From positions 1 to 53,408 of the forward strand of contig JBIIGV010000005.1 in NCBI GenBank assembly GCA_044236265.1: a DNA stretch of 53,408 bases, in the 5' to 3' direction. This document shows, piece after piece, positions 21,475 to 53,407 of the stretch. Position numbers and translations under genes: made by a program. Position 1 is the stretch's first letter. Each line of letters starts with the position of its first letter. This stretch comes from Oligoflexales bacterium. Its GTDB lineage: Bacteria; Bdellovibrionota_B; Oligoflexia; Oligoflexales; RGVZ01. The notes beneath the pieces are model-generated. The model was not told where the DNA came from. It did no database searches and saw only the letters and a program-made list of their open reading frames with translations.

Positions 21475-21558
21475 TTTATGTTAAAATTTAATAAATTTCA
21501 AGAAAGAATATAGTAAAATCGGCTATTTTCAATGGACTTTAAGAGATCTTTACATAAA
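21475..21558. promoter_or_regulatory. Putative Pho boxes in the divergent phoB/pstS region
   Basis: 11-bp-phased half-sites on + at 21526 (TTTTCAA), 21537 (CTTTAAG) and 21548 (CTTTACATAAA); a near copy TTTAACATAAA on the minus strand at 21475-21485. Confidence 0.5.
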
Positions 21559-21665
21559 TTCCCTCGTCCCTTGGGCAGCGCAGGTGTATGATGGTCAGTC
21601 GGTTTTATGAATAGTTTTCGGTAGTTGACATCATTTTCTGCGCCCTTTTGACCTTGGAGAATGTT

Positions 21666-22601: not shown

Positions 22602-22628
22602 GGCCAAAGTTGTAAAAAGGATTCTCAT

Positions 22629-23570: not shown

Positions 23571-23584
23571 CAAGGATCGCCACG

Positions 23585-24508: not shown

Positions 24509-24513
24509 TTGAT

Positions 24514-26888: not shown

Positions 26889-27709
26889 TGACGCTCTCCT
26901 TCTTTTTTCTTGGGCGCAGCCGCTGATGCCGAAATACAAGAGCCTCGCCCCCACAAACAAGATTTATCTTGTCCACACTCGCGTCGCTCAAAACGAGCGC
27001 ACTCACCTAGTACGACATCCACTGAAGGCGGAGTCTGATTACCAGGAATCACGACGAAAAGATTTCTAGCCAAATTCTTCTTGGGCTTTGCTTTGGCGGA
27101 TTGATCAGCGGCATAAAATTGCTCACTGGCAGCACAGGTTCCTGATGCCTCACAACTCAAGGCCACAGCCACCTGACGATACATTTCAGGCTTTAACTCA
27201 TCGACACCGTCCGTCATATTCCAATAAAACTGAGCCTTCGAAATATACTGCTCCATGGCAGGATCTGACATTGCTGTTGATGGCTTGCAAGGCTCGAGTG
27301 GTATGGTGGCTTCAGACTGGTTTGTCTCGCGCATGTTCTTTTCCACCATCTTTTTCATGTCGGCATAGCCTTGTTCACAGGCTTTTTTATCAAAGGCAAT
27401 GACTTGAATGAGGCCACCGCGAAATTGACGACCTAGGACTTTGCCCTTAAATCCAAACTTACCCGGCTCATAAACTGGCTTTACACCAAATGGCAGTCGC
27501 GCGGACGCCACGTCAATGATGTCAATATCGCGACCGCTACGCTTGGCTGAAAAGGTCCAGTCCACCTCTTGACCAACCGTCACCGCAAAGGAGGACCCTT
27601 TGGGTTGAACCTCAATAGCCGGAAGTTTCCCTCCCGAACCAGAGCACGACATAGCGATCAACCCGCCGAGGATCGTTGTCACGAAGATCTTCGGATTCAC
27701 AGCAACCAT
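26885..27709 (-). CDS. Hypothetical lipoprotein
   Basis: Lipobox-like IAMSC; beta-rich N-domain; Cys-rich C-terminus C......C.....C......C. Confidence 0.65.
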   Translation of the reverse strand: MVAVNPKIFVTTILGGLIAMSCSGSGGKLPAIEVQPKGSSFAVTVGQEVDWTFSAKRSGRDIDIIDVASARLPFGVKPVYEPGKFGFKGKVLGRQFRGGLIQVIAFDKKACEQGYADMKKMVEKNMRETNQSEATIPLEPCKPSTAMSDPAMEQYISKAQFYWNMTDGVDELKPEMYRQVAVALSCEASGTCAASEQFYAADQSAKAKPKKNLARNLFVVIPGNQTPPSVDVVLGECARFERRECGQDKSCLWGRGSCISASAAAPKKKEGERQ

Positions 27710-27718
27710 CTCAACCCC

Positions 27719-29281: not shown

Positions 29282-29356
29282 GTCCTGTAAACCCTCCCTG
29301 GGCCAAGGCGTAATGATACACCTACAGAAGTTTAGCAGGATTTTAGTAAATTGGAA

Positions 29357-29911
29357 TCAAGGCGCAAAACCATCGATACTGACTAGGGTGATTTCAGCGT
29401 AAAGCTTAGCATTCGGCGGAATGTTGGGCGCGACACCGTTGGCGCCATAGGCTAAGTGAGACGGAATCCATAAAGATCTCTTTCCACCCTCTGCCATGCC
29501 GTAAAGACCATCGTTGATGCCGGTCAGGATCGAGCCATCCCCAACAGTCCCCGTCCAGGGACGCCCTTCTGCGATAGAATCAAAGACTTTTTTTCCATCC
29601 TCAAGCTGAATAACTACGTGAAATGATACCTTGCTGCCTTTTGTGACAACCCGTTCAACATCGCTCAGCTTTTCAATGTCTTTTTTTAATGTAAACTGGG
29701 TTTTCTCTTCAACGGTTAGCTGCCTATTTCCATCGACGACGTTGGACGCGAAATACCTGGTGGACGAAACAGTTGAAGGTAGGCCACTCGATGACGAATA
29801 ATCATCCCCAAGAGCAGCCGAAAGAGAGGGCCACGCAGTACACAACACGAAAGCAAACGCCTTCAGCATTACACTGAAGTTATACAAACCATCTTTTGCT
29901 GTTGTCTTCAT
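29357..29911 (-). CDS. Exported FKBP-type peptidyl-prolyl isomerase
   Basis: DGKKVFDS, G..L.GI..GL.GM.EGGKR.L.IP.HLAYG..G....IPPNA.L..EI.L; signal peptide. Confidence 0.9.
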   Translation of the reverse strand: MKTTAKDGLYNFSVMLKAFAFVLCTAWPSLSAALGDDYSSSSGLPSTVSSTRYFASNVVDGNRQLTVEEKTQFTLKKDIEKLSDVERVVTKGSKVSFHVVIQLEDGKKVFDSIAEGRPWTGTVGDGSILTGINDGLYGMAEGGKRSLWIPSHLAYGANGVAPNIPPNAKLYAEITLVSIDGFAP

Positions 29912-29938
29912 AAGTATCCCCACATTGATACGATCAGG

Positions 29939-35900: not shown

Positions 35901-38900
35901 TTCACTTCGTACTCAATCACATGGTTACCACTGCGGTGGAACATGTTGGACATCGTCGTACCACCAGCTTGATTGGTGTCAACTGAGAAAATTTTGTTTG
36001 TCACGAGCAAGGTCACAGGATTCTGCTCAAGGAAACCAGCATTTGTCGCTGTGCCGGAAACATACTTAGGCTCTACCGTGGATGATGACTGTCCCGATGC
36101 CTTAGGGTTGCGATACTGGTCATAGGCCTGGATGACCAAGTTGAACTTATCCGAAGCTGACGCCACCACTGACGCCGGTGTTCCACTGGTTCCCGTACAA
36201 TCTGCAGCGTTTGACACTTTGTTACAAGTGATTGAGTATTTGAGAGTCGTACCTGGCGCCACAGCCGTTGCATTGGTTGTATTTGCTGACTGCAATATTG
36301 GCGACTGGTCGTCTTTGATGTTCAAGTAAAGATTTGACTCAGCCTTCGTAAATCTCAGGGTTGCCAACGCTGTACCAGCTGCAAAAGAAAGCTTCGGACC
36401 AGCTAAGGTTGGAGCCGAGGAGTCGGGGGCTAGATGAGCCGCCGACATCGCCAAGCCCGCGCCATCAATCCATGTGAAATTAAGATTATTCAAATCCGTA
36501 TCAGCACCGACGACCGTTGCATTCGCATTATCGCGGGCAAACACCTGCACAATCACATCTTGACCCGCCACGACGTTGTTCGGTGCATTCACGACGTAGT
36601 TCTTAACGGTTTTCCGTGACGCTTCGGCGTAAATCAGCGTAGATACTGGAGCAGGCATACTGCTCTTTGATCCATCCGTCGCATACACATAGAAGCTGGT
36701 ACCACCAAAGTCTACGGCAAGATTGCTGACAGTCACACTATTTGCATTATTTAGAGAGGTTGCTAAGCAAGCAGTGTCATTGGCTGGTGCAGCGCAGGCT
36801 GGCAGTCTTGACAACGCCGTGGCACCATCACTCGCAACCAGGCTTAAGGTTAAATTCTTCGTTACAGCAATGTCGTTACCGTGTAAATCTCGAGCCCTAA
36901 CGGCAATATTGAATCGATTTCCGCCAGCACTGACCAATGTATTTGTGGACCCCAAAACCGCCCAACCTCGAGTGCTATTTGGCTGCGGTGAATTTGATAG
37001 TCCGGAACCAATGGTCGCATAGTGATCTAGCCCAAGGGCGGCCACTGTAAATCGCCTTAAACCTGATCCAGGAATACTCTTGTTTTGAATTGGATCTGAG
37101 TACGACAGAGATAGCGCATCAGCTGTCAAATAGCTTCCGACACTCTTAACTTTAGCGTAAATATTTGCACAACCGGACGCAAACTGAATATCCCGCGGCC
37201 CTAGTCCAAAGATCTTGCCTGCCGTATTAAAATCAGCGCCAGTTCCAGTAGAAAATTCAATGGCTCGACCCTCAGCGTTCGGTAGAACGACGCCAGACGA
37301 GAATGTGATTGAAAGCATGGCGTTCGGATTTGTAATCACAACGTCATCACTCGTTGTCACAGTGTTTTTGTCATCGATCACAGGATCAACAATGGTCGTT
37401 CCAGCTGCATCGGCCATACAAATCTCCACCGGGAATTCATCGCCGGCGTTGAATGCGACACTTCCTGAGGTTGGAATTGCTGATGACGAAATCTTAAACC
37501 TTGTGAGCGGTGAAACAGTAATTTTTATCGGATCACTCACACCAGTTATACCGTCTTTAACGGACTGAATTTGGAAGGTCCCCGAACGCACCGGGTACCA
37601 CGTAAAATAGTTTTCATTTTTAAACGACGTACTGATCAATCCTGTTCGCGATGCGTTGACAACCGAATAATTGTTACCGCCATTACAGTTACCAAGGTTT
37701 CCAAGTGCATCGTAGTTACAAGCATATGTGGTAATGAAGCGACCAAGGTTTGGCTCTAATGGATAGACAAAGCCCATCGTCGGATTGTAATTGAAGATGG
37801 CATCGTAATTCGCAGTCAGATAGTGCAACGATGTCTCAGCCTGTCCAGACATCACTTTTGTCGCTACAGAAGGACCCACAATAGGCGTCAGAGGAACAGC
37901 TTGACTAATCGCTTGCACGCCAGTTGTAGGGCAGTTACCAGCTGTCTGACACCAGGCTATTGACGCATCATCAATCATTTTGAAATTCAATGTTGCCGTC
38001 GCATTAGCACGCGGTAAACGAGACTTTTCAGCAGGATTGGTTTCGTTAATGATGTGAACGACTGACGACCATCTCAATGGTTTTGGAATAGATCTGCTAA
38101 TCGCAGTGGCCTCGGAATCATGAATACCGCCCGAGTCACCAATTAAAATTGGCTGAGTTCCATCCGGAGCGTTCGAAGGTGTTCCGGACCAATAAACTTT
38201 AAGCGTTCGATTCACTGGATAATAGTATCCGTCTCCGGTCAAGTTATTGTACTGATCCGCAAGACTAACGGAGAATCCAAATTCACTCATAGCTGTCAGC
38301 GTAGGATCGCCCGTACGGTTAATATTCAAATGGTGACCAGGCCCCGGAACGCCGTACATATATAGTGGCGTTGATGATGGAATCTCGGTATTAGCAATGT
38401 CGATTTGGTGAGATCCGGCCAATCGTATCGTCGGATCATTGAAAATGTTGATTGCCGCAGACCCCAAAGCACCTGGTGTACCGACTGTCAGCTGAGCAGC
38501 TGGAAGTGTTGTCGAAGAAACCGTAAATCCAGCCGTTGAACCTGGCTTAATGTAATTGTGCTCGGAGTCATGCGTATGCCAGTATACTGTCTGCTTACCG
38601 CAAAGTCCCCCAAAGCTTGAGCCCGCAATTGTTGGAAGAATACACTTGTCAGTCGTTCCGATCTCCAGCTTGTAATAATACTGATCAGAGAAAACAAAGT
38701 TCGGATTCAGCACACTGTCGTTCATAACACCATGCAAATGGTGGGCACTTCTTCTAAACGTGGTGAAATAATCTTGGTGATTGTGAGCAGTCGCGATACT
38801 ACCGATCGTTGTGTTGCCAGGACCTTTAAATTGAATCCCAGCGCCACGGGAGACAAGTTGCGGGAAAGTCTCTCCAGCGAGGACGATTTGCGGCAACTCA

Positions 38901-41900
38901 ATCTGCAGATATCGATCCGTACTTGGATTTGCTGTATTGTAATTAGAAGCAGTCTGCCCTACCGGCAGACAAATATTACCTGGCATCACAAGCTCACCAG
39001 ACGCAACTGTCACGTTACCATACCACCAATCCTTGATTTGCAGCCCTAGAATTGCGTCGTTAACTCCGCCCCCCTCAGAAGCTTGCGCATTTGGAATCGA
39101 GAAACCAGGGGCGAACGGACCTGGAACATCTGGCTTGTTGTGGTTTGCATAGTAGCTATTTGACTGAGCACCTTGCTGCATACTGGTGAGGAATGCAAAA
39201 TCACCTGCTTTGTCATCCGCCATACCTGTGGGATTCAATGCGTCAGGCTTGATTAACTTCATGGCAGCCTTGACCACCGTGGAATATTGAGTAATCTGAT
39301 TATGCTTGCGGTCGTGAAGAAATACTCGAACCTTGTTGCATTCACCAGCTACGATGTTGGCGTTGTTGCGGGATGCATTTGTTGGGTCATACATCACCAC
39401 TTCGGTGTGCTCAACCTGACCAGGCCTTAACTCAATATATGGCGAAGGCCAGGCGATAAGACTTGAGTTTGCTGCCGACTTCGCCACTGCATAACCTAGA
39501 CCCGTGCGATTTTGAGGAACGAAAACTGTTGTATAAAGAGTAGAATTGCGATTGCCTGCTACGGTTATCGAGCTTGATTCCGTAGCGGGATCGTAGAACT
39601 TCTTGGGTGTTGCCAGCAGTCCATCGGCTGGATTTGCGTTGGCAACAAAAAGATTGGCCTGAGGATAAGGTGTTGCTGACCACTCACCGGTCTGATCATT
39701 GAAATAAGTTGAATAAACTCGGTCATTTGAAATAAATCCATCGTAAGCAATTTGGTCTGACACAAGCGCATCGCGGACGTAATTTCCAGCCACGTCTGCA
39801 ATGGCAATAGCAAAAGGGATTTCCTGATCTGTGGTAATAGTATATCCAGCAGTCAATGACTGTGGAGTGCGAACGAGTGCTCCAGCAGTCGGTCCACCAC
39901 GCTTATCCGCGAAGAAAATGCGCTTTTCGGTACCTAGCGATGCGGGAACCAGTTTTGCCCAAGCGCCCGTGATCTCGCCGGCTGGAGTCAACTGCTCAAC
40001 TGAGATCGATGCTGACGCACGAACATCGGTCAATTTATAGGTTGAAGCGAATGTGCAAAGGCCGCTTGCAAAAGTACAGGAGACAGACCCATTTGGAAGT
40101 GTCGGCGCCAGTCCAGCCCAGCTCGGCGCAGCCGAACTTACTACATCAAACGTCTTAGCACCGACATAAGCTGGCACAATTGTGTTAGTTGCATCAAGTG
40201 CTTGCAGCTGAATCTTAAATTCCAGTCCGGCTGTTATCGGTAGTGTCAGCAACGAGTTGTCTGATGCCTTGAGGAATGCTAAACCAAATTTCACCGCAGC
40301 ACCGGAGGTGAACTGCAGCGCAGGACTTAAAGCCGCTTTTACATTGGCCATTGGTTGCTGCGTCACTGTATCAAACGGAATTGCTAATATGCGCCCCTGA
40401 CCAGCTATACCAACAGATTGCAACTTGCTGGATGTGCTGATCTTGTTAGACAGACCGCGGTTGAAACCGCAGAAAACCTCATTTTTATTCGCAGTGATAG
40501 GTTGGTTCGAACTGTCCGCGTTGGGTGTCGGACATGTTGTTCCATCATTATAACTTGATGGGTTCGCGCTACCAAGCACCGTCAATGCGGCGGTTAAGCC
40601 AGAGCTTGCCGATGTGGCGGCCGAGTTGTCGTCGTAGGAATCCCTGACACCCCAGAATTTCGCAGTCACTTCTCCGGTATAGTTTGCACCGGCATCGTAG
40701 CCAGCAGCAAAGAAGTCGTATCGTTGGTCATTGTTCAAAGCAAGATCTGATCCGGTCTTATCCCTCCAGTTTGCACCAAAGCCACCGGCTGCTTCACGAA
40801 GAATTGTCTGAGTTGTCGTACCCGGCACAATGGTCACCGTCTTAGGCGTACGCATAACAAGGTTTGCATTTGATGCCGAAACAAAGTTGATCTTCGGCTG
40901 GCTTTCTCCGGCTTGCAAATTCGGCACTTTACGAACTCGGAATGTACCGGTCGTCGTCGCCACGCCATTGGCAAACGTCAATGGAGTCGTCACATGATCG
41001 ACCATTGTCACATCACTCGCCAATGCAGTAATTCCGGTTGGTGGTTGCGGATTAAAGACGGGACCAAGCGTCAGGGATAAAGCTTGTGAACCATTGTATT
41101 CGTTACATTGGTTGTATTTAGCGTCAAATAGTGTCACGACAGCTTTAAAATCAAACGCAGCCTTCTCACTACCCACACTGGCATAGTTTTCAGAGACGGC
41201 CTCAATAACCTTGGGCGATCCAGCCTTTGCTGTCATTGTCACAGTACCTGCGAACGATTGCCTACCAGATCCATCTACATTAGGACAATTGGTAGGGCTT
41301 GCCGCACAGAATGTCATCGCCGTCTTATCCTCCAAAAGGAAGTTAAGGGTGGCAACTTCGTTTGCTTTAGCAATGCGAGTGTAGTCAGCGGACTGTGAGT
41401 TACTTAAGCTAAACTGGAGGTTCTGAGTTCCGGACAAGGTTATTGTTCTGGTCACGGGAGACGCAGCTAAATAGTCGCCACCACTTTGACCTGCCGTAAC
41501 AGGCTCTGTTCCATCTGGGGAGGTCGAGATCGCTGACGACCAGTAAATCTTCAAGTTTCGTTCAACCGGGTAATACTGATAATTACCGGTCAAGTTGTTG
41601 TATTGATCCTCAAGACGAATATCAAATCCAGAGCTCGTATCGGTGGTAATAGGTGTCGCACCGGTGCGTGTGACAACCATGTGATGGCCTGGGCCAGGAA
41701 TTCCTGTGAAATAGTAAACTGAACCAGGTTTACCTGCAGCGGTAAGCTCAGAGTTGCTCGACGTGACGGAATGATCCCCGGCGGTACGGCTCGAAGCGCT
41801 CGAATACAAATCAATGGTTCCAAAGCCACTAGCGGATCCAACGGTATATTCCGCGGACTGTAAGCTAGCGGACGACGTCACTTGGAATCCAGTTGGGTTC

Positions 41901-44900: not shown

Positions 44901-47900
44901 TAATCCTTATTGCCGGTGATGTTGCCATACTGATCACGAAGCTTGACCGTAAAGCCGATTGAGTCGTCTGTCGTGAAATTTGGCTTAGCTGGGTCAACAA
45001 TACGCGCTACATCTAAAGTTTTTCCAGGACCAGGTATACCCGTAAAGTAGAGCGCACTGGCGCCAGCAGCGACCTCATTGTTGCTGACAGCGAGATTGTG
45101 TGACCCTGACATACGCGAAGGAGCATCGTAGATTTTCGTTGCGACTGAGCGAAGTGTCGTCGTTGTATTAGCTACTTGTGTAAACTGTGCGCCAGGGAGA
45201 GAGCTTGTGACATTAAATCCATTGCTCGCACCTGGACTGACATAGTTATGCGCAGCGTCATGCGTGTGCCAATAAACGGTTTGGATGCCGCAACGGCCAA
45301 TTCCTGTGTGACAAACGTTTTCAACACCAATTTTGACAGGAGCCTTTTGAGCATCGTTATAGTTTGCGACGAGATCAGGCGTCATCATATCGTTATCAGT
45401 AAATGTCGCATGCAAGTGGTGTTTTGCACCACGAAGAATCGTAAACTTATCACCATGGCTATGGGCTGTCGCAACACTGCCGCGGTCCGCATTTCCTGGA
45501 CCCTTATAGACAATGCCTGCACCACGGGACGTCAGCGCTGGGAAGTTACCGGCGGTAAATGCATTACTTGGCAGGTCAACCTGAAGAATCCGCTGAGTCG
45601 AAGGATTTGATTGCGCCTGATTGGCTGCTGTCTGGCCCGAATAGAGACAAACTGACCCAGGCATCACGATCTCACCAGCCGATGCCGCCACCTGACCAGA
45701 CCACCAGTCTTTGATCTCTAGACCCGTGAAAGCCGGATGTGTGAATATGAAGTTACCACCGGAATTTGCAGCAGCACCGACAATCTTAAACGCAGAGTTG
45801 AACGGACCTGGGATTTCCGGAGCGTTGCGTGTTTTGTAATAGTCACGAGCAGCATCATTACCCGATTGCATGGTCGACATATAAGAGAAGTCACCTGCAT
45901 ATGGATCATCCATCCCCGTTGGATTCGCCGCGTCTATTTTGAAAAGTTTCAACGCAACTTGTGTGGCACCGGTATAATCAGTTCGCAAGTTGTGCTTTTT
46001 ATCATGCACGAACACACGCACTTTGTTACATTCGCCAGCGACAACATTTCCGTTATTGCGAGAAGCGTTGTTTGGATCAAATAGGACCGTCTCAACGTGC
46101 TCGATAGCACCCGCAGTCACTGTTATCAAAGGAGATGGCCAGGTTTTGAGAGTTCCTGACTTCACAACAGCGAAACCGCTGCCTGTTCTATTTTGAGGGA
46201 CATAAACTGTATTATACGCTCCAGTGACCTTAAATGCAGCAGTTGCTATCGATGCCCCTTCGGTCGACGGATCGTAAAACTTTTTGGCCGTCGGTAAGAG
46301 ACCCGCAAGCGGGCTAGAGTTGGCAACAAAAAGATCACTCACCGTGTATGTCGTCAGCCAATCTCCGGTTGCAGCGTCGAATAGACCTGAAAGATTACTG
46401 GATGACGCACTCAAGCCCTCGTAAACCAGGTTGTCTGATGATGTCGCTTCTCTGATATAGTTACCGCCAACGTCCGTGATCGCAACGACGAACGCCTTTT
46501 CATCATCTGCAGTTAAGGCAATACCGCCTGGCGTCGTGCCTGGAGTTAAAACTTTAGCCCCTGAATTCGGGCCACCATTCTTGTCGGCAAAATAAATGCG
46601 AGCCGCGGTAGAGCCGGTCGCAGGAACCGTAGTCGAAGCTGCTGGTATCGTCGTTGTCGGACTGGTTTGGGTTACTTGGATCGTCGCATCGTTTACGAGC
46701 GGGGTCACCACCAGATTCTTAACGGTGGTTACTACGTAGCTACCAGGTAGTGTACATATACCACTCGCAAACGTACAATTCATTGACCCACTTGGTAAAG
46801 TCGGTGCTAGCTGTCCCCAACTCTGCGGGCCAGCCGAGACAACATTGAATGTCTTTTCACCAGAATAACTGATGGCGATGGTCTCCGTGCTATCACGAGC
46901 TTGAATGCGAATCTTGAATGGGGCTCCGGCAGGAATACCACTCGCATAGACGTTATCAGTTGTGGCATCACGGAATTCAAAAGTGAAATGATCAGCGACA
47001 CCGGCCTCAAAGCTCATCAAAGGAGACAGCGTGGCTTTGGCGCCGCTATTAGGAATAGCGATGATTTTACCCGGGCCAAAGTTTCCGACAGACTTGAACT
47101 GGGACATCGTGCCCGTACTTGTTAACAATCCTCGATGAATTCCACAGAAGATGGTCGTGAAAAGGGCTGCAGACTCATTAGGATCAGGGCATGTCGCCGT
47201 TGTTAAATAATTTCCTGGTGCTTTACCACTCAGCGTAGTAACCGCAGTATTGAAGCCTGACCCGACTGGGTCATTGTCATCGAGGCTTTGATTGACACCG
47301 AAGAATTTACCCTCGACATCTTGCTTAAAGTTAGCCGCGGCATCGTAGCCGGCCAAATACCAGCGGTAGTTGACGTCGTTGTTAATTGTGATCTGTCCCA
47401 AATCTTTCAGGATAGACCCCTGACCAGACCCAGCGTCACGCAAAACTGTTTGAGTGACTGGACCAGGAACGATCGTCACAGTTGTTGGATTGCGGACTGT
47501 GAGCCCTGCTGTCACGTTTCCAAGAATAATTTTTGGATGAACTTCGCTTGCACCAGAATTAGGAACTTTCAGAACCGTGAACTCTTGAGTGGTTGTACCC
47601 TGACCGGCTGCAATTGTGATCGGTGTACCCGTGTGATCAAGCTCAGAATTAGCCGTGGCAGTCACGCTAAGACCCGTTGGAGGCACTGGTGTGTAAACCT
47701 GGTCGAGCTTAATCTTCACGCTAAGCGGATCATTGTAGGTGTCTGCTAAATTGTACTTCTCGTCAAACAGGGCCACCTTAACATTAAACGGAACGGTCGC
47801 CTGTTCGATAGCGATGGTCCCATTGATCCTCTGTGGTTTCAGCTCGACCACACTCGGGGTACCGTGCTTAGCGGTCAGAGCAATCGATGACGAGACGGTC

Positions 47901-50900
47901 ATAGGTCCACCGGCAGGAGCCGAAGGACAAGCACCAGCCGTAGCGCACAAAGTCACCGGCGCGCTGTCTGTCAATTTGAAATTCAGAGTCACGGCTTCAT
48001 TAGTCTTTGCCAACTGGGTTGCGTCAGAGGCATTAGCAGCATTTAATGTGTAGTCAAACTCAACCCCTGGATCGAGACTGACTGCTTTTGAAACTGCTTT
48101 GGCAAGCCCGGCACGGTCCCCGCCCACTTGACCGAGTAACGTTGGTTTTGAACCATCTGGAGAGTTCGAGGGATTCGCTGTCCAATAGGCAGCAATCGTA
48201 CGATCGACAGGGTAGTATTCCTTGTCACCGGTAATGTTACCGTAGGTGTCGAGTAATTCCAGTTTGAAACCAATCTTCTCATCAGTGGTAAAGTTAGGAG
48301 TAGATCCACCAACGCGAGTCACTCTCAGACTAGCACCGGGTCCGGGAATACCCTTCATGTGTAAAGAGCCGGGATTAGCAGACGTCGCCGTGTTGCTTGC
48401 GGTAATCGTGTGACTACCCGCGGTGTGAGCTCCGCTTGTATTGTAATAAATTTCGGAATACGGCGATCCGCCACCATTTGTTACACTCCTGAATTCTGCC
48501 CCAGGAAGGGTGCCGGGGGACGCCGTAAAGCCCGCAGCTGAGGTTGGTCCAAAATAGTTGTGCGCAATATCGTGCGTATGCCAGTAGACCTTTTGGAGAC
48601 CGCATTTGCCGATTGAAGCAACGCATGGATCGGTCACACCAATTTTCAGAGGATTTTTTGCGGCATCATTGTGACTATCAACAAGCACCGCACTGACTGC
48701 ATTGTCCACGAACGTCGCGTGTAAGTGGTGGGCAGACGTACGTTTATAGACCGTGAATTTGTCTTGATGCAGCACATGGGCGGTAGCGGTGCTACCGACA
48801 GTGGCACCGTTCTTACCAATGAACGTAACGCCCGGTCCGCGAGATACTAGTGCCGGGAAGTTAACACTACCCATGGTGTTTGCTGGCAAATCAACTTGCA
48901 GGAATCGCTCTGCAAACGGGGCCGCGTCACCACGGTTAGCCGCAGTTTGGCCGTCGTATAAACAAACCGATCCAGGAACAGCAAATTCGCCAGAGGCAAC
49001 TGTTACATCACCCGACCACCAGTCTTTGATCGGTAGACTTGTGAAATTTGGATGCGTGAAGATAAAGTTACCACCCGAGCTCGCTACAGCATTAGGAATA
49101 TCAAACGCAGGACTGTATGGACCTGGAAGCTCTGGAGCGTTGTGAGTTGCATAGTACTCACGGGCCGCCGCGTTGCCTGCTTGCATTGCTGTGATCGCCG
49201 CAAAGTCACCGGCCTGGGCATCAGCAACACCTGGCTTCATTAACTTGAGGGCAACTTTCGTCAGACCCGAGTAATTTGTCAGGATGTTATGTTTGCGGTC
49301 GTGAATGATTACTTTAACTTTGTTACACTCGCCAGCAAGAACGTTCGAGTTGTTGCGCGTGCCATCGGTAGTACTGTAAAGAACCGTCTCCACATGCTCA
49401 ATCGCACCAGGGGTGACCGTGATTCGCGGCGATGGCCAAGAAATAAGTGAATTAGATTTTACAATAGCGTAACCGCTACCTAGACGATTCTGTGGTACGT
49501 ACACCGCATCGTACAGAGCCCCATCTTGCAACGCAGTCGTTTGGATGGCAGGCAAATCAGCAGCGTCACTCGGGTTATAGAATTTCTTAGGAGTGGGAAC
49601 AGCGCCGTTCGCCGTGGACGGGTCTGCGATAAACAAGTCACTAGCAGTGTAGGTACCGGTCCATTGACCCTGAATACTATCGAAGAGTGACGCAATGTTA
49701 GCTGTATCAGATTTATACCCTTCAATGCGGACGAAATCAGCTGCTGTTGCGGCACGGAGATAGTTACCACCAATGTCTGTCACGGCGATGGCAAAGCCCT
49801 TCTCCTCATCAGCTGTAATGGTGTATCCTGCCGGAACCGTGTCCGGTGTGAGGACGGTTGCACCATCTGCAGGAGCCCCTAGCTTACTTGCAAAATAAAT
49901 TCGAGCAGGATCACTTTTCTGAGTGAATATGTCAAAGGACCATTCCCCTGGGACACCGCCAGCCGTGGATTCTGCAACGGTGATCGTTTCCTTTTGATCA
50001 AAGTTAGCCACTTTATAACCAACACCGGCAGCCGGACCAGGAATCTCACATACACCGGCGGCAAATGTACAGGTCTTCAAACCATTTGGGAGAACAGCTT
50101 TGATTTTACCCCAGCTTGCGACTGGCGTATTTGAAAAATTGAGAACTTTGATTCCATTGTAGCTAACAGCATCAGAGTTGTTTGAATCCTTTGCATGGAC
50201 AATAATCCTAAATTGCAGACCAGCAGGAATCGGAGACGACAACGCCTCACCCGTCATCTTCTTATACTCAAGAGTGAAGTGAGTCGGCATACCCGTAAAG
50301 TCAAAGATCGGTGAGAGCGCCACTGCGATCGAACTTGTGGTAGGAATCGCAAGCAGGCGTCCTGGGCCTTTATCACCAATTGATACAAACTCAGCGGAGA
50401 CGCCTTCAAAATTTATCAAGCTTCGATGCACACCGCAGAAGAGCTGATTGCTCAGCGGTTGGTTGGTCGGGTTTGTTGCAGAGTCAGGATCAGGACACTG
50501 AGCTATCGATCCGTAATAAGACGGCCCGTTGGCATTGCCACGCAAAAATTGCGCGAACGTATTCAAAGTGGTTAGACTTGCGGTCGCGTCACTGAACGAT
50601 GGAGCGATACCCCAGAATTTTGACGGGACATCCGCATTGTAGTTACCTGCAGCGTCAAATCCAGCCACATAGAAGCGATAGTTTGTGCTTGGAGAAATAC
50701 CCAAACGATCATTAGCAGCGATGGACTTCAAGATATTACCACCATTGCTGGCAGCATTGCGCAGAACGGTTTGAGTAATTGGACCAGGTACGATCGTTAC
50801 ACGGGTAGGATTGAGCAGCGTATAACCGGCCGTCACATCTCCCAACAATATCTGTGGGTGAACTTCATTCTGAGCTGCATTCGGAACTTTCTTCACAGTG

Positions 50901-53407
50901 AATTGTCCTCCGGACAATCCATATCCATTGGATATTGTCATCGGTGTCGTAGAGTGATCAATGACATCGACGAGTGAGGTCGCATCAGTGATTCCAGTGA
51001 CAGATGTGAGGTTTGGCTGGTAAACTGGGTCTAGCTTGAATTTGATCGCAAGACCACCAGAGTATGTCGTTGCAGGGTTATATTTCGCATCAAAGACATT
51101 TACATGAACTTTGAACGGGACTGTGGCTTGCTCTTCAAACTTGCTTCCGACCCTATTCTCTGGTTGAACTTCGATAACCTTAGGCACACCGTGACCAGCA
51201 TTCAGATTAAGAGATTTTGTAAAGCTCTGAGGACCTGGGTTGTCATCAAGCTTGAAGTTTAAAGTCAGATTTTCTCCGGCCTTGGCGATTTTGGTCCAAT
51301 CCGTTGATAGCGTTGGGCTGAGTGAAAGCTCCATCAATTGACCCGTGGTCAGCACAATGTTGCGAGTCACTGGTGAGCTGATGGTGTGCACGCCGCCAAC
51401 TTCACCCACCAGGACAGGCGTGATTCCCCCGGGCGAGTTTTGTGGATTAGTTGTCCAGTAAGTCGAAAGCCTGCGATCGACAGGGTAATATGTTTTATCA
51501 CCAGTCACGTTGTCGTATTGGTCGTATAGTTTGATCTCGAAGCCCAACGAGTGATCAGTGGTCAAAGTCTCACCCTGCGGAACCCCCGTCATCACAACAT
51601 CAATGTGATGACCTGCACCGGCAATCGCATCGAAATAAAATTTGTTTTCCTTTGCCCCCAAAGCTGTGTTTTTTAATGTCACATCATGGAGCCCAGACTG
51701 TCTTGACGCACCACTGTAGATCACTGTTGACGGCGACCCAAGTGCACCAGGCGTGCCTATGGCCGCCTGCCCAGCCGGTAGTGTTGTCGTTAAATTAAGA
51801 CCAGCTGTTGCTGCAGGTCCAATCAAGTTGTGTGCTTCGTCATGACTATGCCAGTAAAGGGTCTGCGATCCGCAGATACCGCCAGCGTTTGTAATCGTCG
51901 AGGCACAGGACTGGTCAACCCCAATTTTGACGCGGTGGTTGGTCGCATTATTGTGACTATCGACTAGCTTTGGATCAGCAACGTCGTCTTGGAATGCGGC
52001 GTGCAAGTGATCAACAGCCTTTCTGAATACCTTGAACTTATCGCCATTGTTATGTGTGTGCGCAGTCGCAGCACTACCCATTTGTACATTACCTGCACCC
52101 GTGAATGTCACACCTGCACCACGAGAAACCAGTTTTGAAAACACCACACCGTTAAGCGTCACAGCAGGTAGTTCAACCTGGAGGACACGTTCGGTAAATG
52201 GAGCAACAGCCCCGGCTGCGTAGCTAGACTGGCCAGAGTACAAACAAACATCACCCGGCACTTGGAGTTCACCTTCCACCACCTGGGTAGCCCCAGTCCA
52301 GAAGTCTTTTATCGGTAACGATGTGAAAGATGGATGACTGAAAATAAAGTTACCGCCCGACGATGGGTCAGGATCGACGACGCTAAAGGCGCTATTGTAT
52401 GGACCAGGAACCTCAGATTTGTTCTGGTCTGCATATAGATCACGAGCCGCAGAGGTGCCCTGCTTTAGACCGTAAATAAAATCAATGTCTCCACCTTTGG
52501 TATCAGCAGCACCAACTTTAAAGAGTTTAAACACAGCCTTTGACACTGGGGTCGTATAGGTTGTGATGACGTTGTGCTTTTTGTCGTGAAGAAAGACTTT
52601 AACCTTGCTGCATGATCCGGCCTGAATTGCACTGTTGTTGGGTGTCGCATCCGTTGGACTGGTCATCGCAATCGTCTCAATATGCTCAACATCACCAAAG
52701 TTGATCGTGATAAGTGGCGACGGCCAGGCGATAAAAGTTGGGTTGGCAGTGGACTTAATGACTGCAAATCCGCGTCCGGTTCTGTTTTGCGGGATTAAAA
52801 CGGTTGAATATAAACCAGTGTTCTCGTTGTTTGCGTTTTCGATGACATCTTTATCTGCCGTGCTGGTTGGGTCATAAAATTTCTTTGGCGTTGTCGATCC
52901 AGCGATGAATAATTCACTTTCCGTGAACTGTGGCTCACCGTTAGTGTAGGCCTTCCAATCACCAGTAAGATAATTGAATTGATCTGCATACGTTCCATCA
53001 GTTGTGGCAAATCCTGTAAATGAAAGGCCATCAGCACCATCAGCGTTGCGAAGGAAGTTACCGGCAATATCGGTAACAGCCACCGCAAACGGCATCTCCT
53101 CTGTTGTCTTCATCGACAAGCCAGCAGCAGTCGTCTCAGGCGTCAGGGCTTTCGCGCCGGCGTCTGGCCCACCCTTTTTATCGGCGAAGAAATAGCGGCC
53201 AGCGACACCAACTTGCACTGGGACAAGGTCACTGTATGCGCCACCGGGAGACGGATTAACACCAGCATCCCATGATAAAAGCTGAATCGTAATTGATGTG
53301 TCCGGTGTGTTTGGAAATGTTGCTGCGGGGTAGCTTGCAGCCGAGAACCAGTAAGGACCGCCCGGCAAGGTACATTTACCGTTTTCAAAGGTACATTCTA
53401 AATCACC
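29939..53407 (-). CDS. Giant repetitive surface/secreted protein, at least 7,822 aa (start lies beyond the window)
   Basis: No stop over 23.4 kb. The frame stays open past the called TTG at 53368 to the window edge (GDLECTFENGKCTLPG). T/S/G/A/N-rich, Ig-like D-x-x-G-N strands, Fn3-like and chitobiase-C-terminal-like domain near the C-terminus. Confidence 0.93.
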   Translation of the reverse strand, partial: GDLECTFENGKCTLPGGPYWFSAASYPAATFPNTPDTSITIQLLSWDAGVNPSPGGAYSDLVPVQVGVAGRYFFADKKGGPDAGAKALTPETTAAGLSMKTTEEMPFAVAVTDIAGNFLRNADGADGLSFTGFATTDGTYADQFNYLTGDWKAYTNGEPQFTESELFIAGSTTPKKFYDPTSTADKDVIENANNENTGLYSTVLIPQNRTGRGFAVIKSTANPTFIAWPSPLITINFGDVEHIETIAMTSPTDATPNNSAIQAGSCSKVKVFLHDKKHNVITTYTTPVSKAVFKLFKVGAADTKGGDIDFIYGLKQGTSAARDLYADQNKSEVPGPYNSAFSVVDPDPSSGGNFIFSHPSFTSLPIKDFWTGATQVVEGELQVPGDVCLYSGQSSYAAGAVAPFTERVLQVELPAVTLNGVVFSKLVSRGAGVTFTGAGNVQMGSAATAHTHNNGDKFKVFRKAVDHLHAAFQDDVADPKLVDSHNNATNHRVKIGVDQSCASTITNAGGICGSQTLYWHSHDEAHNLIGPAATAGLNLTTTLPAGQAAIGTPGALGSPSTVIYSGASRQSGLHDVTLKNTALGAKENKFYFDAIAGAGHHIDVVMTGVPQGETLTTDHSLGFEIKLYDQYDNVTGDKTYYPVDRRLSTYWTTNPQNSPGGITPVLVGEVGGVHTISSPVTRNIVLTTGQLMELSLSPTLSTDWTKIAKAGENLTLNFKLDDNPGPQSFTKSLNLNAGHGVPKVIEVQPENRVGSKFEEQATVPFKVHVNVFDAKYNPATTYSGGLAIKFKLDPVYQPNLTSVTGITDATSLVDVIDHSTTPMTISNGYGLSGGQFTVKKVPNAAQNEVHPQILLGDVTAGYTLLNPTRVTIVPGPITQTVLRNAASNGGNILKSIAANDRLGISPSTNYRFYVAGFDAAGNYNADVPSKFWGIAPSFSDATASLTTLNTFAQFLRGNANGPSYYGSIAQCPDPDSATNPTNQPLSNQLFCGVHRSLINFEGVSAEFVSIGDKGPGRLLAIPTTSSIAVALSPIFDFTGMPTHFTLEYKKMTGEALSSPIPAGLQFRIIVHAKDSNNSDAVSYNGIKVLNFSNTPVASWGKIKAVLPNGLKTCTFAAGVCEIPGPAAGVGYKVANFDQKETITVAESTAGGVPGEWSFDIFTQKSDPARIYFASKLGAPADGATVLTPDTVPAGYTITADEEKGFAIAVTDIGGNYLRAATAADFVRIEGYKSDTANIASLFDSIQGQWTGTYTASDLFIADPSTANGAVPTPKKFYNPSDAADLPAIQTTALQDGALYDAVYVPQNRLGSGYAIVKSNSLISWPSPRITVTPGAIEHVETVLYSTTDGTRNNSNVLAGECNKVKVIIHDRKHNILTNYSGLTKVALKLMKPGVADAQAGDFAAITAMQAGNAAAREYYATHNAPELPGPYSPAFDIPNAVASSGGNFIFTHPNFTSLPIKDWWSGDVTVASGEFAVPGSVCLYDGQTAANRGDAAPFAERFLQVDLPANTMGSVNFPALVSRGPGVTFIGKNGATVGSTATAHVLHQDKFTVYKRTSAHHLHATFVDNAVSAVLVDSHNDAAKNPLKIGVTDPCVASIGKCGLQKVYWHTHDIAHNYFGPTSAAGFTASPGTLPGAEFRSVTNGGGSPYSEIYYNTSGAHTAGSHTITASNTATSANPGSLHMKGIPGPGASLRVTRVGGSTPNFTTDEKIGFKLELLDTYGNITGDKEYYPVDRTIAAYWTANPSNSPDGSKPTLLGQVGGDRAGLAKAVSKAVSLDPGVEFDYTLNAANASDATQLAKTNEAVTLNFKLTDSAPVTLCATAGACPSAPAGGPMTVSSSIALTAKHGTPSVVELKPQRINGTIAIEQATVPFNVKVALFDEKYNLADTYNDPLSVKIKLDQVYTPVPPTGLSVTATANSELDHTGTPITIAAGQGTTTQEFTVLKVPNSGASEVHPKIILGNVTAGLTVRNPTTVTIVPGPVTQTVLRDAGSGQGSILKDLGQITINNDVNYRWYLAGYDAAANFKQDVEGKFFGVNQSLDDNDPVGSGFNTAVTTLSGKAPGNYLTTATCPDPNESAALFTTIFCGIHRGLLTSTGTMSQFKSVGNFGPGKIIAIPNSGAKATLSPLMSFEAGVADHFTFEFRDATTDNVYASGIPAGAPFKIRIQARDSTETIAISYSGEKTFNVVSAGPQSWGQLAPTLPSGSMNCTFASGICTLPGSYVVTTVKNLVVTPLVNDATIQVTQTSPTTTIPAASTTVPATGSTAARIYFADKNGGPNSGAKVLTPGTTPGGIALTADDEKAFVVAITDVGGNYIREATSSDNLVYEGLSASSSNLSGLFDAATGDWLTTYTVSDLFVANSSPLAGLLPTAKKFYDPSTEGASIATAAFKVTGAYNTVYVPQNRTGSGFAVVKSGTLKTWPSPLITVTAGAIEHVETVLFDPNNASRNNGNVVAGECNKVRVFVHDKKHNLRTDYTGATQVALKLFKIDAANPTGMDDPYAGDFSYMSTMQSGNDAARDYYKTRNAPEIPGPFNSAFKIVGAAANSGGNFIFTHPAFTGLEIKDWWSGQVAASAGEIVMPGSVCLYSGQTAANQAQSNPSTQRILQVDLPSNAFTAGNFPALTSRGAGIVYKGPGNADRGSVATAHSHGDKFTILRGAKHHLHATFTDNDMMTPDLVANYNDAQKAPVKIGVENVCHTGIGRCGIQTVYWHTHDAAHNYVSPGASNGFNVTSSLPGAQFTQVANTTTTLRSVATKIYDAPSRMSGSHNLAVSNNEVAAGASALYFTGIPGPGKTLDVARIVDPAKPNFTTDDSIGFTVKLRDQYGNITGNKDYYPADRELALYWTKTNESVSPSNSPDGTVPTLMGVAGTNRTTLANATKRVVALTGSNDFDYILSPTMASDYTKIVKSDESVSITFKLTDTSTMPICGLANACASPAGSGVQSVSATLNLTALHGVPAVIEVKPEHAVGTVMVEQATVPFKGLVSLFDDKYNPVNSFSGTIKVKLELDNTYTPAPPVGVTNSITIVKTLDYTSTGMTITNGTGTTPGSFVVSKVPDVTATPAELHPKIMLVSDADGALNMRKPMQLTIVPGPTSQSLLRQEAGGKGTIWKSLTSPQELSNDLQYFFFVAGYDAGGNYTADVPSKFWGVKSSFNDVNAAGSGLTEAITLLRAETSSYSTAQDCPVPDVGPTNQPVGNRLYCGTHRSLQTKAGASTILKSAGISGTGRVLAIPDSNAISTALSPEISFLSGIATRFVIELRESNGITTIPAAVTAGKKFKVFVHAVDDAGVDSRTYSGARSLTFTTAAERSWGYVKASVPNGTFTCTFNEGVCSLPNDYYFTDASTDPTMAVVLPGEGGLSSNNQIFDVVADTVAARIFFASKKGGPAAGAVVETATKRPAGFGEKKATEEIALAVAVTDIAGNYLRNADITTDQLIFEGFSNSSNSLEGIYDQDIGNWAAGYSYAVDDLFVANSSPAAGLLATPKKFYNPADATDASIIETAAFKATPFIYTAVYVPQNRVGQGYAVVRSQNNPAWISWPSPWFQIVPGAVEHVETKVYNASDASVNNSNITAGVCNKVKIFLHDRKHNLVSNYPSSNIVALKLIKANNANPSGVADLKAMDFDFITAMADGTQSRDYYLNHNKPDYPGPYSPSFVIPGAVASDGGGYAYDDGSGSGLPIKDWYSKLMLTSGGVIDVPGQLCLYSGQNTDTFGSGSPQDWRYLQVDLKAISTQPAIASRGAGLTFTGPSGNIISGATPHTHTSDKLIIKRGTIHHLHPAFASSVTTPNLVANFNSVSNRVAMGVSQACPLSICGTQKIYWHTHDEAHNYLRPGNPTGFQVTSSASLQSAEYTVGSASGFGTIDLYSSASSRTAGDHSVTSSNSELTAAGKPGSVYYFTGIPGPGHHMVVTRTGATPITTDTSSGFDIRLEDQYNNLTGNYQYYPVERNLKIYWSSAISTSPDGTEPVTAGQSGGDYLAASPVTRTITLSGTQNLQFSLSNSQSADYTRIAKANEVATLNFLLEDKTAMTFCAASPTNCPNVDGSGRQSFAGTVTMTAKAGSPKVIEAVSENYASVGSEKAAFDFKAVVTLFDAKYNQCNEYNGSQALSLTLGPVFNPQPPTGITALASDVTMVDHVTTPLTFANGVATTTGTFRVRKVPNLQAGESQPKINFVSASNANLVMRTPKTVTIVPGTTTQTILREAAGGFGANWRDKTGSDLALNNDQRYDFFAAGYDAGANYTGEVTAKFWGVRDSYDDNSAATSASSGLTAALTVLGSANPSSYNDGTTCPTPNADSSNQPITANKNEVFCGFNRGLSNKISTSSKLQSVGIAGQGRILAIPFDTVTQQPMANVKAALSPALQFTSGAAVKFGLAFLKASDNSLLTLPITAGLEFKIQLQALDATNTIVPAYVGAKTFDVVSSAAPSWAGLAPTLPNGSVSCTFASGLCTFASTYKLTDVRASASISVEQLTPAGEITGAWAKLVPASLGTEKRIFFADKRGGPTAGALVRTPQSLTAGYTITTDQEIPFAIAIADVAGNYVRDALVSDQIAYDGFISNDRVYSTYFNDQTGEWSATPYPQANLFVANANPADGLLATPKKFYDPATESSSITVAGNRNSTLYTTVFVPQNRTGLGYAVAKSAANSSLIAWPSPYIELRPGQVEHTEVVMYDPTNASRNNANIVAGECNKVRVFLHDRKHNQITQYSTVVKAAMKLIKPDALNPTGMADDKAGDFAFLTSMQQGAQSNSYYANHNKPDVPGPFAPGFSIPNAQASEGGGVNDAILGLQIKDWWYGNVTVASGELVMPGNICLPVGQTASNYNTANPSTDRYLQIELPQIVLAGETFPQLVSRGAGIQFKGPGNTTIGSIATAHNHQDYFTTFRRSAHHLHGVMNDSVLNPNFVFSDQYYYKLEIGTTDKCILPTIAGSSFGGLCGKQTVYWHTHDSEHNYIKPGSTAGFTVSSTTLPAAQLTVGTPGALGSAAINIFNDPTIRLAGSHQIDIANTEIPSSTPLYMYGVPGPGHHLNINRTGDPTLTAMSEFGFSVSLADQYNNLTGDGYYYPVNRTLKVYWSGTPSNAPDGTQPILIGDSGGIHDSEATAISRSIPKPLRWSSVVHIINETNPAEKSRLPRANATATLNFKMIDDASIAWCQTAGNCPTTGVQAISQAVPLTPIVGPSVATKVMSGQAETSLHYLTANYDAIFNYNPTMGFVYPLEPNLGRFITTYACNYDALGNLGNCNGGNNYSVVNASRTGLISTSFKNENYFTWYPVRSGTFQIQSVKDGITGVSDPIKITVSPLTRFKISSSAIPTSGSVAFNAGDEFPVEICMADAAGTTIVDPVIDDKNTVTTSDDVVITNPNAMLSITFSSGVVLPNAEGRAIEFSTGTGADFNTAGKIFGLGPRDIQFASGCANIYAKVKSVGSYLTADALSLSYSDPIQNKSIPGSGLRRFTVAALGLDHYATIGSGLSNSPQPNSTRGWAVLGSTNTLVSAGGNRFNIAVRARDLHGNDIAVTKNLTLSLVASDGATALSRLPACAAPANDTACLATSLNNANSVTVSNLAVDFGGTSFYVYATDGSKSSMPAPVSTLIYAEASRKTVKNYVVNAPNNVVAGQDVIVQVFARDNANATVVGADTDLNNLNFTWIDGAGLAMSAAHLAPDSSAPTLAGPKLSFAAGTALATLRFTKAESNLYLNIKDDQSPILQSANTTNATAVAPGTTLKYSITCNKVSNAADCTGTSGTPASVVASASDKFNLVIQAYDQYRNPKASGQSSSTVEPKYVSGTATNAGFLEQNPVTLLVTNKIFSVDTNQAGGTTMSNMFHRSGNHVIEYEVKGHTHAGYYTQTFHNYSAHKDMVYYYALENFSPTNEAGVADTFNLVAYDYGNNIATGIDTDLNNQSYTWSTHTAAPNGATTTYPNNQNPAAASSLTFSGGRASNLTVTFKKVEFLTFDVRDNYTVAASGNGGTGPLGTRKTISGYSSMVSHGKPNKYSITTATTSPQAGVPFDVTVTARDQFDNIATSWPSDTLTYSWTAGASSSIANPKTSSVLSPPPYATQSRTFSIGAYSTSGTPFVLYRSNLTALSPQEVSTLTVSGSNTNTLSGSALSTTLNFTTQPNASHGYVKVTSTAGYSAGAQLGGTAFTMSVDNSRNLFAHMFDAYGNYKGNTFAVDWSGTGVLYSIIYTIFDPASSNFTQMQPRTAGTGTFTATCTGLTAGCIADTSGTVTTTVGSINKLVYIVPTPANNFSQDTETCQAIQVQSLDRWDNPSPVLANTTITFASSGGNGEFYASQTECTNAQAGGNGATVNTGTFHTTSLAGSAGNRNATMLANASTVQVWYSNRTAVASNAATITAISGSWSVTINATINPGPAKRFAYTSSAPTINAVGSAGSTCATLSYKFQDKWENNSTPTSSSTVYLSKSSAAGTFHTDSGCSSGAITNRSLLAGVANDTFYYKDTQANTSTITLMATSTPSGNAVLAAQTQNVTVNPGSFAIGGASPSSGSKVKDTVSISWSASAGARDYTVSYGTTTACSTTMSTTSATAANITAGLNGTNYICIRANGYTGVSPGSPNTNATTNGSYNLIIDNTLPTATITAPASSVTYIGPLTTTMGSGSSTRFTGTASDATAGVSLVEVRLQQGTQYWNGSSWVSSETWVAATGTTSWYYDISDANMTARGDASAFTITARVTDGSGNLSNNALTAHFKNFTWKFNAPTATLSSLPGVLLSSSYYSKATALGVTVSGSLVLSYRHAIVSGSSCGSPTYGSITAQTTNITNAIGADGQYTLCVIAIDEAENVQATPTSHTWYKDTQAPSVTGLSAATVNATYSTSPTVTDSSAPSGSVVSYSWTATPSNSCTVAFSSTTALNPTISLSNCTNSWGQPTITLTATDTATNSGSQSFVLTWDQEAPSISAVFANKTAGSYSVGQSIPVKVRFTKSASNPNKNTFSLTLSQAANLAYNIQGASRSGSVSAGTFTNTGNGNGVEIEFAYTVLSGDNSAYQAGQTLNISSTSAFTTAGSFKDNIGSGNNANYSGAPTAGASALLSSAVVIDTVNPGLGTASYQSPADDYCINSSERSLATAMLTNVSGNETLNLTNGANYKLITEGTTCGSALSFGTSIPQANSSDFNAGDVNYVICIRFIDLASNVGYALASATSIKLDTNTPLITAGPTLAAAAANGLNATERGLTSGILSSAVTVNDGTATINYTATRVASNNCAAATGYSGSIPAMNTGIINADATDWRICVKVFDAAGNTSYGATTTFVVDTGAPSILSGFQWTGDTTGLNGAADGYLNITENAAGTTLLSAITPSETSTILYKMVQSWVVCSGESYSSSAVPTRADMTVDNTYKVCARMTDNYGNVSYQNTTNLTRDTSPPTGAFVSGLPAAQSNFNSSLNIAVSGSDTSKYDYQVVSGTAASCSSIGNTRDYTTNITDNIAGLAQGNITVCMKARDVANNLQTTTTSYTWVKDTIVPADVSYSSPTGTINSATPTVQWSAPAGDVSKIHMFVSTTSSTCTNGIVQSYESSNSTQLAGNSTSKTLASIVEGTYYVCIFTLDLAGNQSSGAYGSFVYDIPQVAAPVISPGTGTYTTTQVVSMSSSTSGATIYYTTNGTQPTCSGTAYSVPFRIFATTTFKAIACAAGYIDSEVTTVTPTLNIRGVTLTTVPNSQTTITVSNVAAGTNVPVEVFVQANGSEKIHNYHVANPFFGICNWNGSSCFSWQFLTGNANLTCNGTTSTPNYNNCVQTGSPTLSNGASRVFRYGSQLDTSASFYGYLALYRNSPGSNSTIKVYIGSASGSATVSVDSWNDYNDTNTNQTLSID
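37880..53395 (-). repeat. Tandem intragenic super-repeats of about 3.3 kb (about 1,100 aa)
   Basis: Anchor motif CTF..G.C begins at 53395, 50071, 46777, 43426 and 40078, giving spacings of 3324, 3294, 3351 and 3348 nt. A fifth copy is partial, to about 37880. Protein motifs are conserved while codons have diverged. Confidence 0.93.

Follow-up and report, generated by a model that had tools for sequence, protein, structure and literature searches.

A giant lipoprotein-type protein of an Oligoflexales bacterium built from tandem blocks of seven predicted immunoglobulin-like domains

Which kind of bacterial protein is built from tandem units of about 1,100 amino acids (aa), and what might such units be for? 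The question is raised by a 53,408-nt stretch of DNA of an Oligoflexales bacterium (contig JBIIGV010000005.1 of assembly GCA_044236265.1; hereafter the window), which is an entire contig (C64) of the source genome, G000. The window carries a single open frame that reads on the minus strand from 53407 to 29939, encodes 7,822 aa and is 5′-open where the contig ends. An initial annotation made from the letters alone had described this protein as an array of super-repeats, each suggested to be a functional module, possibly in an undescribed surface fibre or prey-contact apparatus. Our analysis indicates that the protein is probably a lipid-anchored fibrillar adhesin that was lengthened by duplication of whole blocks and carries a binding tip at its far end.

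The repeat array was confirmed. Between CTF..G.C anchors located at residues 5, 1113, 2211, 3328 and 4444 of the window frame there are four complete units of 1108, 1098, 1117 and 1116 aa and a partial fifth of ~727 aa, as had been reported, and the frame continues for 2,650 aa past the end that the initial annotation assigned to the protein. Pairwise unit identity was 41.5-47.7% across all ten pairs, and local alignment of the second unit (U2) with the third (U3) scored 2578, compared to a maximum of 90 after shuffling (n = 100). The 15 ordered motifs listed for each of the four complete units were found as written in 57 out of 60 cases; the other three deviate (TAKKFY for TPKKFY in U3, ATVPF absent from U4 and TLSP for ALSP in U2). 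At the DNA level, likeness between units is confined to patches of at most 240 nt at 65-87%, and third-base identity at identical four-fold codons is 0.29-0.34 when 0.26 is expected. Near-saturated third bases together with patchy DNA likeness indicate that the array is old and real and not an artefact. Sequencing runs told the same: 8 of the 24 listed hold at least half of the window's words, all of them from lake water, and none of the holders is listed as RNA. Among the four runs compared, X1, possibly the source, spans 38584-52708 in one contig with zero differences, and of the four unit junctions, three are spanned by X2 and X3 contigs in the 28 pieces listed out of 113. Of the 40 differences listed (123 in total), 29 are synonymous, an excess expected for a gene under selection.

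The missing start of the frame was sought by searching the genome with the repeat units, and this search retrieved one additional piece, at the end of contig C106 (locus L001). There, a frame of 854 aa from its Met starts in a hydrophobic stretch followed by a lipobox-like Cys and stops three residues short of a CTF..G.C anchor, so that the flanking contig does supply an N-terminus with an export signal, of lipoprotein type according to pattern and hydropathy. The ends of C106 and C64 mismatch at 3 of the 11 bases of their would-be overlap. However, X2 and X3 contigs match L001:4166-4209 and continue directly into the first bases of C64 (the X3 contig is also collinear at L001:3500-3546), and X1 read depth is halved across L001:2263-3593 and window positions 52679-53404. 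From the halved depth and these joins we read the N-terminal region as present in two haplotypes, of which the assembly used one per contig. In the second haplotype nothing is missing between the N-terminus and the window. Hence, the expectation that more copies lie upstream is most likely wrong: C106 supplies the rest of unit 1 and an N-terminus of ~440 aa, most likely all that precedes C64, and the full protein likely has ~8,670 aa with five whole units of ~1,110 aa. The lake runs also contained strongly diverged allele patches, at L001:2155-4209 and at window positions 52679-53404 and 35640-36651, with 87 differences in an X3 contig and 75 in an X2 contig; outside these patches most of the giant gene is near-identical between runs, which suggests block-wise allele exchange.

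To what fold do the units correspond? An AlphaFold2 model of unit 3, obtained with 28 aligned rows, consists almost only of strands (predicted local distance difference test, pLDDT, 88.1; predicted template-modelling score, pTM, 0.57), and the prediction for one unit is seven immunoglobulin (Ig)-like beta-sandwiches in a row. The ranges of the fold matches begin or end at about residues 134, 288, 419, 586, 814 and 946, which gives the borders of seven domains, drawn with the additional help of DSSP and sequence motifs. The domains have 130-230 aa, with long insertions in domains 2, 4 and 5. The best VIA fold match, for model residues 1-419 (domains 1-3), was the invasin-like adhesin FdeC (Z 8.9, root-mean-square deviation 7.2, 285 residues aligned), followed by intimin D0-D1, LigA (Z 6.9) and S-layer Ig domains, while Foldseek with the whole unit returned generic multi-Ig chains only (TM 0.10-0.18). 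Profile-profile comparison matched the sub-domains of the unit with one another at up to 96.6%; they have in common a D-x-x-G/H/Y-N hairpin, and hidden Markov models of domains D1-D7 match in identical order in every block. Among distant homologues of individual sub-domains there were weak matches to Invasin_D3, Filamin, FlgD_ig and CARDB. The atlas scored Big_1, Invasin_D3 and Filamin at 0.83-0.91, a weak lead given that its recognition score was low. Scans of the units against Pfam, NCBIfam, PHROGs and PDB sequences yielded nothing usable (the only matches, to MTTB and uridine kinase, had E values of 0.3 and 0.33), so none of these collections holds a known family covering the unit, in agreement with the initial annotation; nor was any enzyme domain among the Pfam and NCBIfam matches.

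The description of the unit as a multi-domain module was thus borne out. Its opposition to a simple stalk is unsupported, since the unit is predicted to comprise seven related stalk-type domains, and many of the conserved motifs correspond to the strand-B D-x-x-G-N hairpin, the Gly/Pro turns and the cysteine pairs of Ig-like domains. The CTF..G.C anchor, taken earlier as the unit boundary, lies midway within a predicted domain; the natural unit begins ~370 aa before it. Ten cysteines per unit are nearly fully conserved (for eight columns in at least 22 of the 22-23 rows, and for two in 13/13 and 8/8) and form five within-domain pairs, which would probably be joined as disulfides. In domain 6, H818, H820, H868, H870 and D871 (unit 3 numbering) are invariant in 20-21 of 20-21 rows, the histidines being placed on two predicted strands with i, i+2 spacing. 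A complex prediction with two copies of domains 5-6 plus zinc scored 0.00, which is evidence neither way.

A profile of the unit gave 48 matches among 1.84 billion representative proteins, 16 of them at E≤1e-30, and picked up the block in 11 of the 94 genomes searched from the order, in 8 over most of its length. The best named homologue belongs to Oligoflexales, phylum Bdellovibrionota (L012, 34% identity). A word-index search for longer homologues found none in 7,998 candidates, a weak negative since the profile search did find homologues. Close homologues follow one plan: behind a lipoprotein-type signal come three N-terminal domains and then block BA, which a linker domain connects to block C′; a distal stalk leads on to the tip. 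By pattern and hydropathy, 17 of 17 N-termini show a lipobox-like Cys after a hydrophobic stretch. The ten close full-length homologues, of 4,617-7,605 aa, all have BA once and C′ (~930 aa, with seven conserved strand-B columns) one to four times: once in P0002, twice in G021 and G036, three times in P0005, P0010, P0011 and P0012 and four times in G001, P0003 and P0007. Nine of the ten therefore repeat C′ two to four times, whereas the window protein has five BA and a single C′. These rows are kin and not independent, G001/P0007, G036/P0005 and P0010/P0011 being close pairs, and the copy-number differences are seen between species. In a quick tree, the five A parts of the window protein form one clade (Shimodaira-Hasegawa-like approximate likelihood ratio test, SH-aLRT, 94). 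Its five B parts, including the one on C106, also form a clade (SH 85), and branches among these copies equal in length those that separate species. Amplification of C′ happened more than once, the window's single C′ grouping with the last copy of four-copy proteins (SH 98). Long branches in the trees are those of G005b and P0012. Genome G005 contains two A pieces, 33% identical, on two contigs (C335 and C334; L006 and L024), which may point to a second unit, to a paralogue or to wrong binning of one contig. A distant relative on G033:C26 (L027:9724-19998) is a giant lipoprotein whose repeat period of ~380 aa corresponds to about three domains.

The C-terminus is where relatives and window protein part. 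Ten relatives end in a conserved domain of ~330 aa that was modelled as a beta-propeller (pLDDT 81.7, pTM 0.84), with the lectins PHL and PLL among the top fold matches, along with CylK, integrins and glycoside hydrolases. Five other homologues comprise P0054, a duplicate of P0012, P0027, whose end is weakly similar, P0056, which stops early, and P0019 and P0020, which end otherwise. At the junction where the propeller begins in relatives, the window protein has a CHB_HEX_C_1/Fn3_assoc domain and an orphan domain of 166 aa with four cysteines. This orphan tip had no usable match in the atlas, the homologue search recovered the window's own protein alone among 3,014 candidates, and across 94 genomes of the order the tip was present in its own genome only (1/94). 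No recognised adhesive domain was found in the window protein; we propose the orphan tip as a candidate binding domain.

These data can be accommodated in a mechanism in which the protein would be exported by the Sec/signal peptidase II route and acquire its disulfides in the periplasm, with the N-terminal lipid likely holding it in the envelope. Delivery to the surface might proceed most plausibly through the type II secretion system encoded in the genome. The stalk would comprise ~60 Ig-like domains, of which BA accounts for 35 and C′ for 7 while the remainder is an estimate, and, taking the ~4 nm per Ig-like domain given for titin (PMC7427331), could reach roughly 240 nm when extended. Length would have been gained long ago by unequal recombination copying whole seven-domain blocks, consistent with reports that repeats commonly grow by duplication of several domains at once (PMC1553488). 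The tip would then adhere to particles, algae or other cells, and exchanges of binding regions have been described in repeats-in-toxin (RTX) adhesins (10.1101/2025.09.30.679566). Several observations weigh against this reading. The C106-C64 path was demonstrated for the second allele only; a pTM of 0.57 leaves the overall shape, rod or folded-back, unfixed by the model; and the FdeC match is tied with Ig domains of glycoside hydrolase family 2 (GH2) glycosidases (Z 8.1-8.8), its Z of 8.9 barely exceeding the ~8 flagged as possibly reflecting a common arrangement. Domains 4-6 were hardly compared on their own. In addition, 123 near-invariant block columns, including six histidines, may go beyond the needs of a passive stalk, the propeller matched hydrolases, lyases and integrins at similar scores, and the window tip has no homologue in the searches made.

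Could each block be a working cassette rather than a mere spacer, its domain 6 exposing at the surface an HxH...HxHD site for a metal or an acidic ligand, with the fibre binding multivalently through its five copies? The invariance of H818, H820, H868, H870 and D871 speaks for it, as do the enrichment of histidine (1.9% of the blocks vs 0.5% of the distal stalk), the long insertions in domains 2, 4 and 5 and the fact that each of the ten full-length relatives keeps the block intact with its order unchanged. Nevertheless, the clustering of the histidines is predicted and not seen, the invariant set is mostly Gly, Pro, Asp, Cys, Phe and Asn, and relatives make do with one BA and lengthen C′, which has no His patch, so that we consider a cassette rather unlikely. 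Selection might have acted on the seven-domain period itself, either to match a periodic partner or to permit bundling in register, as titin does with the thick filament. BA (~1,110 aa), C′ (~930 aa) and the 752-aa unit of a second giant protein of the genome (C202, see below) each count seven domains, which would give similar periods of ~30 nm, and the super-repeats of the titin D-zone have seven domains as well (PMC7427331). Yet these are three cases only, by our own counts and two of them from one protein family, the G033:C26 protein repeats a block of about three domains, species differ in copy number (1 to 5), a partner with a matching period is not known, and multi-domain duplication needs no such selection (PMC1553488); we give a selected period little credence. 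A bolder version, whereby the fibres of lake bacteria would follow a seven-domain (~30 nm) rule matched to a lattice or to bundling, as a bacterial analogue of the titin ruler, with the His metal site marking each period here, strikes us as a long shot too.

The prey-contact apparatus of the initial annotation, that is, a fibre dedicated to this purpose in a predatory cell, gained no supporting evidence, and we find it improbable. The affiliation of the best named homologue to Bdellovibrionota and a variable tip that fits target switching would suit it, and in Bdellovibrio chimeric fibres reportedly serve prey recognition. On the other hand, the block is present in 11 of the 94 genomes, in full in 8, predation by Oligoflexus is predicted but unconfirmed (PMC10385382), and no lytic or hydrolase domain was found, unlike in giant proteins of Omnitrophota (10.1101/2023.11.21.568195). 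Least probable of all, to the point of being nearly dismissed, is that the unit is a catalytic assembly-line module or the array an assembly artefact. Modules of non-ribosomal peptide synthetases and polyketide synthases (NRPS/PKS) are similar in size to the ~1,100-aa unit, and the contig does end within the array. A catalytic module was rejected on the lack of Pfam or NCBIfam enzyme matches and on the all-beta Ig chain of the model, and an artefact on the diverged unit DNA, the third bases near expectation and the X2 and X3 contigs bridging junctions. A fast-evolving repeat of Periscope type was likewise discarded, given 42-48% aa identity and third-base identity of 0.29-0.34 vs 0.26 expected. 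The lipid-anchored adhesin, a surface fibre as first proposed, thus remains our best reading.

The coordinates of the protein and its surroundings are collected in Table 1. Rfam had no match in the window or in L001, and promoter and terminator scans near the 3′ end of the giant gene were near shuffle level. An FKBP peptidyl-prolyl isomerase (PPIase) gene starts 15 bases past the stop codon and also adjoins the gene in G001; the SBP_bac_5-like gene and two unknown genes further downstream also stand beside the giant gene in G001, G021 and G036, in opposite orientation there. On its upstream side the giant gene is flanked in G000, G001 and G004 by a divergent gene for a lipoprotein with tetratricopeptide repeat (TPR) and PEGA domains; in the first two genomes this gene is followed by one for a protein of ~218 aa with a terminal aromatic residue that looks like a small outer-membrane barrel (upstream pair at L001:171-1553 and L016:9124-10468, respectively). 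Both could possibly be helpers of export or display. Contig C100 (L042:2-7567) encodes a secretin and a T2SSE-family ATPase in one operon, together with a platform protein and a pseudopilin; from its gene names, which include two GspC-like genes, we take this to be a type II secretion-like system. Type II secretion systems can display lipoproteins. A search of the genome for SlipAM (Slam) gave no match, although the control also matched nowhere.

The genome is rich in large envelope proteins. A second giant lipoprotein (G000:C202:33698-79186; L041, L043), 3′-open and of at least 15,150 aa, is unrelated to the first in the sequence of its repeats: seven Ig-like domains (Pfam Big_5) make up a unit of ~752 aa that recurs ~19 times at 52-68% identity, alternate units resembling each other more. 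Contigs C13, C32, C53, C143, C168, C178, C185 and C200 carry another nine frames of 1,385-2,472 codons, two of them adjacent paralogues on C13, and most have lipoprotein-like N-termini by eye. Elsewhere in the window (19257-25260 and 13546-15810) lie phoB/phoR-like genes with a divergently oriented pstSCAB-type operon, and a gene for a HelD-like helicase that recycles RNA polymerase.

Table 1. Location of the giant protein, its parts and its neighbours (window coordinates unless another locus is given).
Feature	Position	Strand	Remark
Giant open reading frame	29939..53407	-	7,822 aa within window, 5′-open
N-terminal part on G000:C106	L001:1652-4213		854 aa: lipoprotein-type signal, ~three domains, domains 1-3 of unit 1
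Unit 1, second part	51197..53407	-	end of domain 3, domains 4-7
Unit 2, natural register	47870..51196	-	seven predicted Ig-like domains
Unit 3 (folded)	44540..47869	-	five conserved Cys pairs
Unit 3 domains	residues ~1-134, 135-287, 288-419, 420-585, 586-812, 813-945, 946-1110		from fold-match ranges, DSSP and motifs
HxH...HxHD patch, domain 6 of unit 3	45257..45418	-	present in all five units; candidate metal/ligand site
Unit 4	41228..44539	-	
Unit 5	37883..41227	-	complete in natural register
Linker domain and block C′	34688..37882	-	C′ ~945 aa, seven strand-B motifs; single here, 2-4x in relatives
Distal Ser/Thr-rich stalk	30686..34687	-	common to relatives; weak Big_13 and Big_3_4 matches
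CHB_HEX_C_1/Fn3_assoc domain	30440..30685	-	begins at junction where relatives' beta-propeller starts
Orphan C-terminal tip	29942..30439	-	166 aa, four Cys; candidate binding domain
Neighbour cluster	26016..29923	-	FKBP PPIase, SBP_bac_5-like protein, two unknowns

Taken together, these findings define an unannotated family of lipoprotein-type proteins of 4,600-8,700 residues in which orthologues grow long by multiplying either of two seven-domain blocks and the tip is exchangeable, which makes it a natural experiment on the growth of giant bacterial surface proteins. They also raise the question of how a cysteine-paired lipoprotein of ~0.9 MDa is exported, and the tip, the propeller and the histidine patch provide testable handles on target attachment in an uncultured freshwater lineage. 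In the literature searched, which included few subscription papers, we found no description of the family or of a seven-domain super-repeat in bacterial surface proteins; larger repeated blocks may appear in the figures and supplements of the RTX survey (10.1101/2025.09.30.679566) and of the giant-gene preprint.

How does the protein compare with known systems? It falls outside each family against which membership was checked (Lig, intimin/invasin, RTX, Periscope, MAT and NRPS). NRPS and PKS are made of condensation, adenylation, ketosynthase and carrier domains, none of which was found here by Pfam or NCBIfam, and the model is all-beta. The MAT fibres of Bdellovibrio are trimeric and phage-tail-like with a chaperone domain, whereas here neither Pfam nor PHROGs gave such a match and an Ig chain is modelled. 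With the RTX adhesins (LapA, SiiE, AhLap) and Periscope proteins it shares giant Ig-chain extenders, differences in copy number and swapped binding regions, and repeated extender pairs have been described in RTX adhesins of Bordetella (10.1101/2025.09.30.679566). Unlike RTX proteins secreted by type I systems (T1SS), it shows no beta-roll/T1SS tail or retention module by Pfam, in the whole frame or the N-terminus, and has a lipoprotein-type signal instead. As in Periscope proteins, repeat number varies among homologues, here between species (BA once vs five times, C′ one to four times), but long, highly similar DNA repeats are missing.

Members of the intimin/invasin family have an N-terminal outer-membrane beta-barrel. 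Points of contact with this family are the FdeC match of domains 1-3, itself tied with GH2 Ig domains, the D-x-x-G-N hairpin and the weak Big_1 and Invasin_D3 leads. In contrast, no inverse-autotransporter barrel was detected, the C106 N-terminus has no Pfam match at E≤0.05 and its lipobox leads straight into domains related to the unit, which are larger (130-230 aa) and carry long insertions. Lig proteins have about a dozen domains with Big_2-type repeats, whereas our protein would have ~60 domains, arranged in seven-domain blocks with conserved Cys pairs and a swapped tip, and its units have no Pfam Big match at E≤1 and no PDB sequence match. Still, the Lig proteins of Leptospira, described as surface lipoproteins with tandem Big domains (PMC3133549), share with it the lipoprotein anchor and tandem Ig-like domains, LigA being among the fold matches (Z 6.9). 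More generally, fibrillar adhesins are described as composed of an anchor, a stalk and an adhesive tip (PMC8286594), and the giant chain resembles them in having a likely anchor at one end, a predicted tandem Ig-like stalk and a variable distal domain; it differs in that its stalk domains belong to no Pfam family and come in a fixed series of seven diverged domains. An ordered seven-domain block in tandem, in which each domain is closer to the same position in other blocks than to its neighbours, recalls the super-repeats of the titin A-band and nebulin (PMC7427331, PMC1553488), an analogy only, as the protein is bacterial, predicted to be extracellular and has no known periodic partner. If the seven-domain period were functional, the idea of a molecular ruler would extend from muscle to the bacterial surface. 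On the best reading, the protein works like a lipoprotein-anchored, Lig-like fibrillar adhesin and is laid out like the super-repeats of titin.

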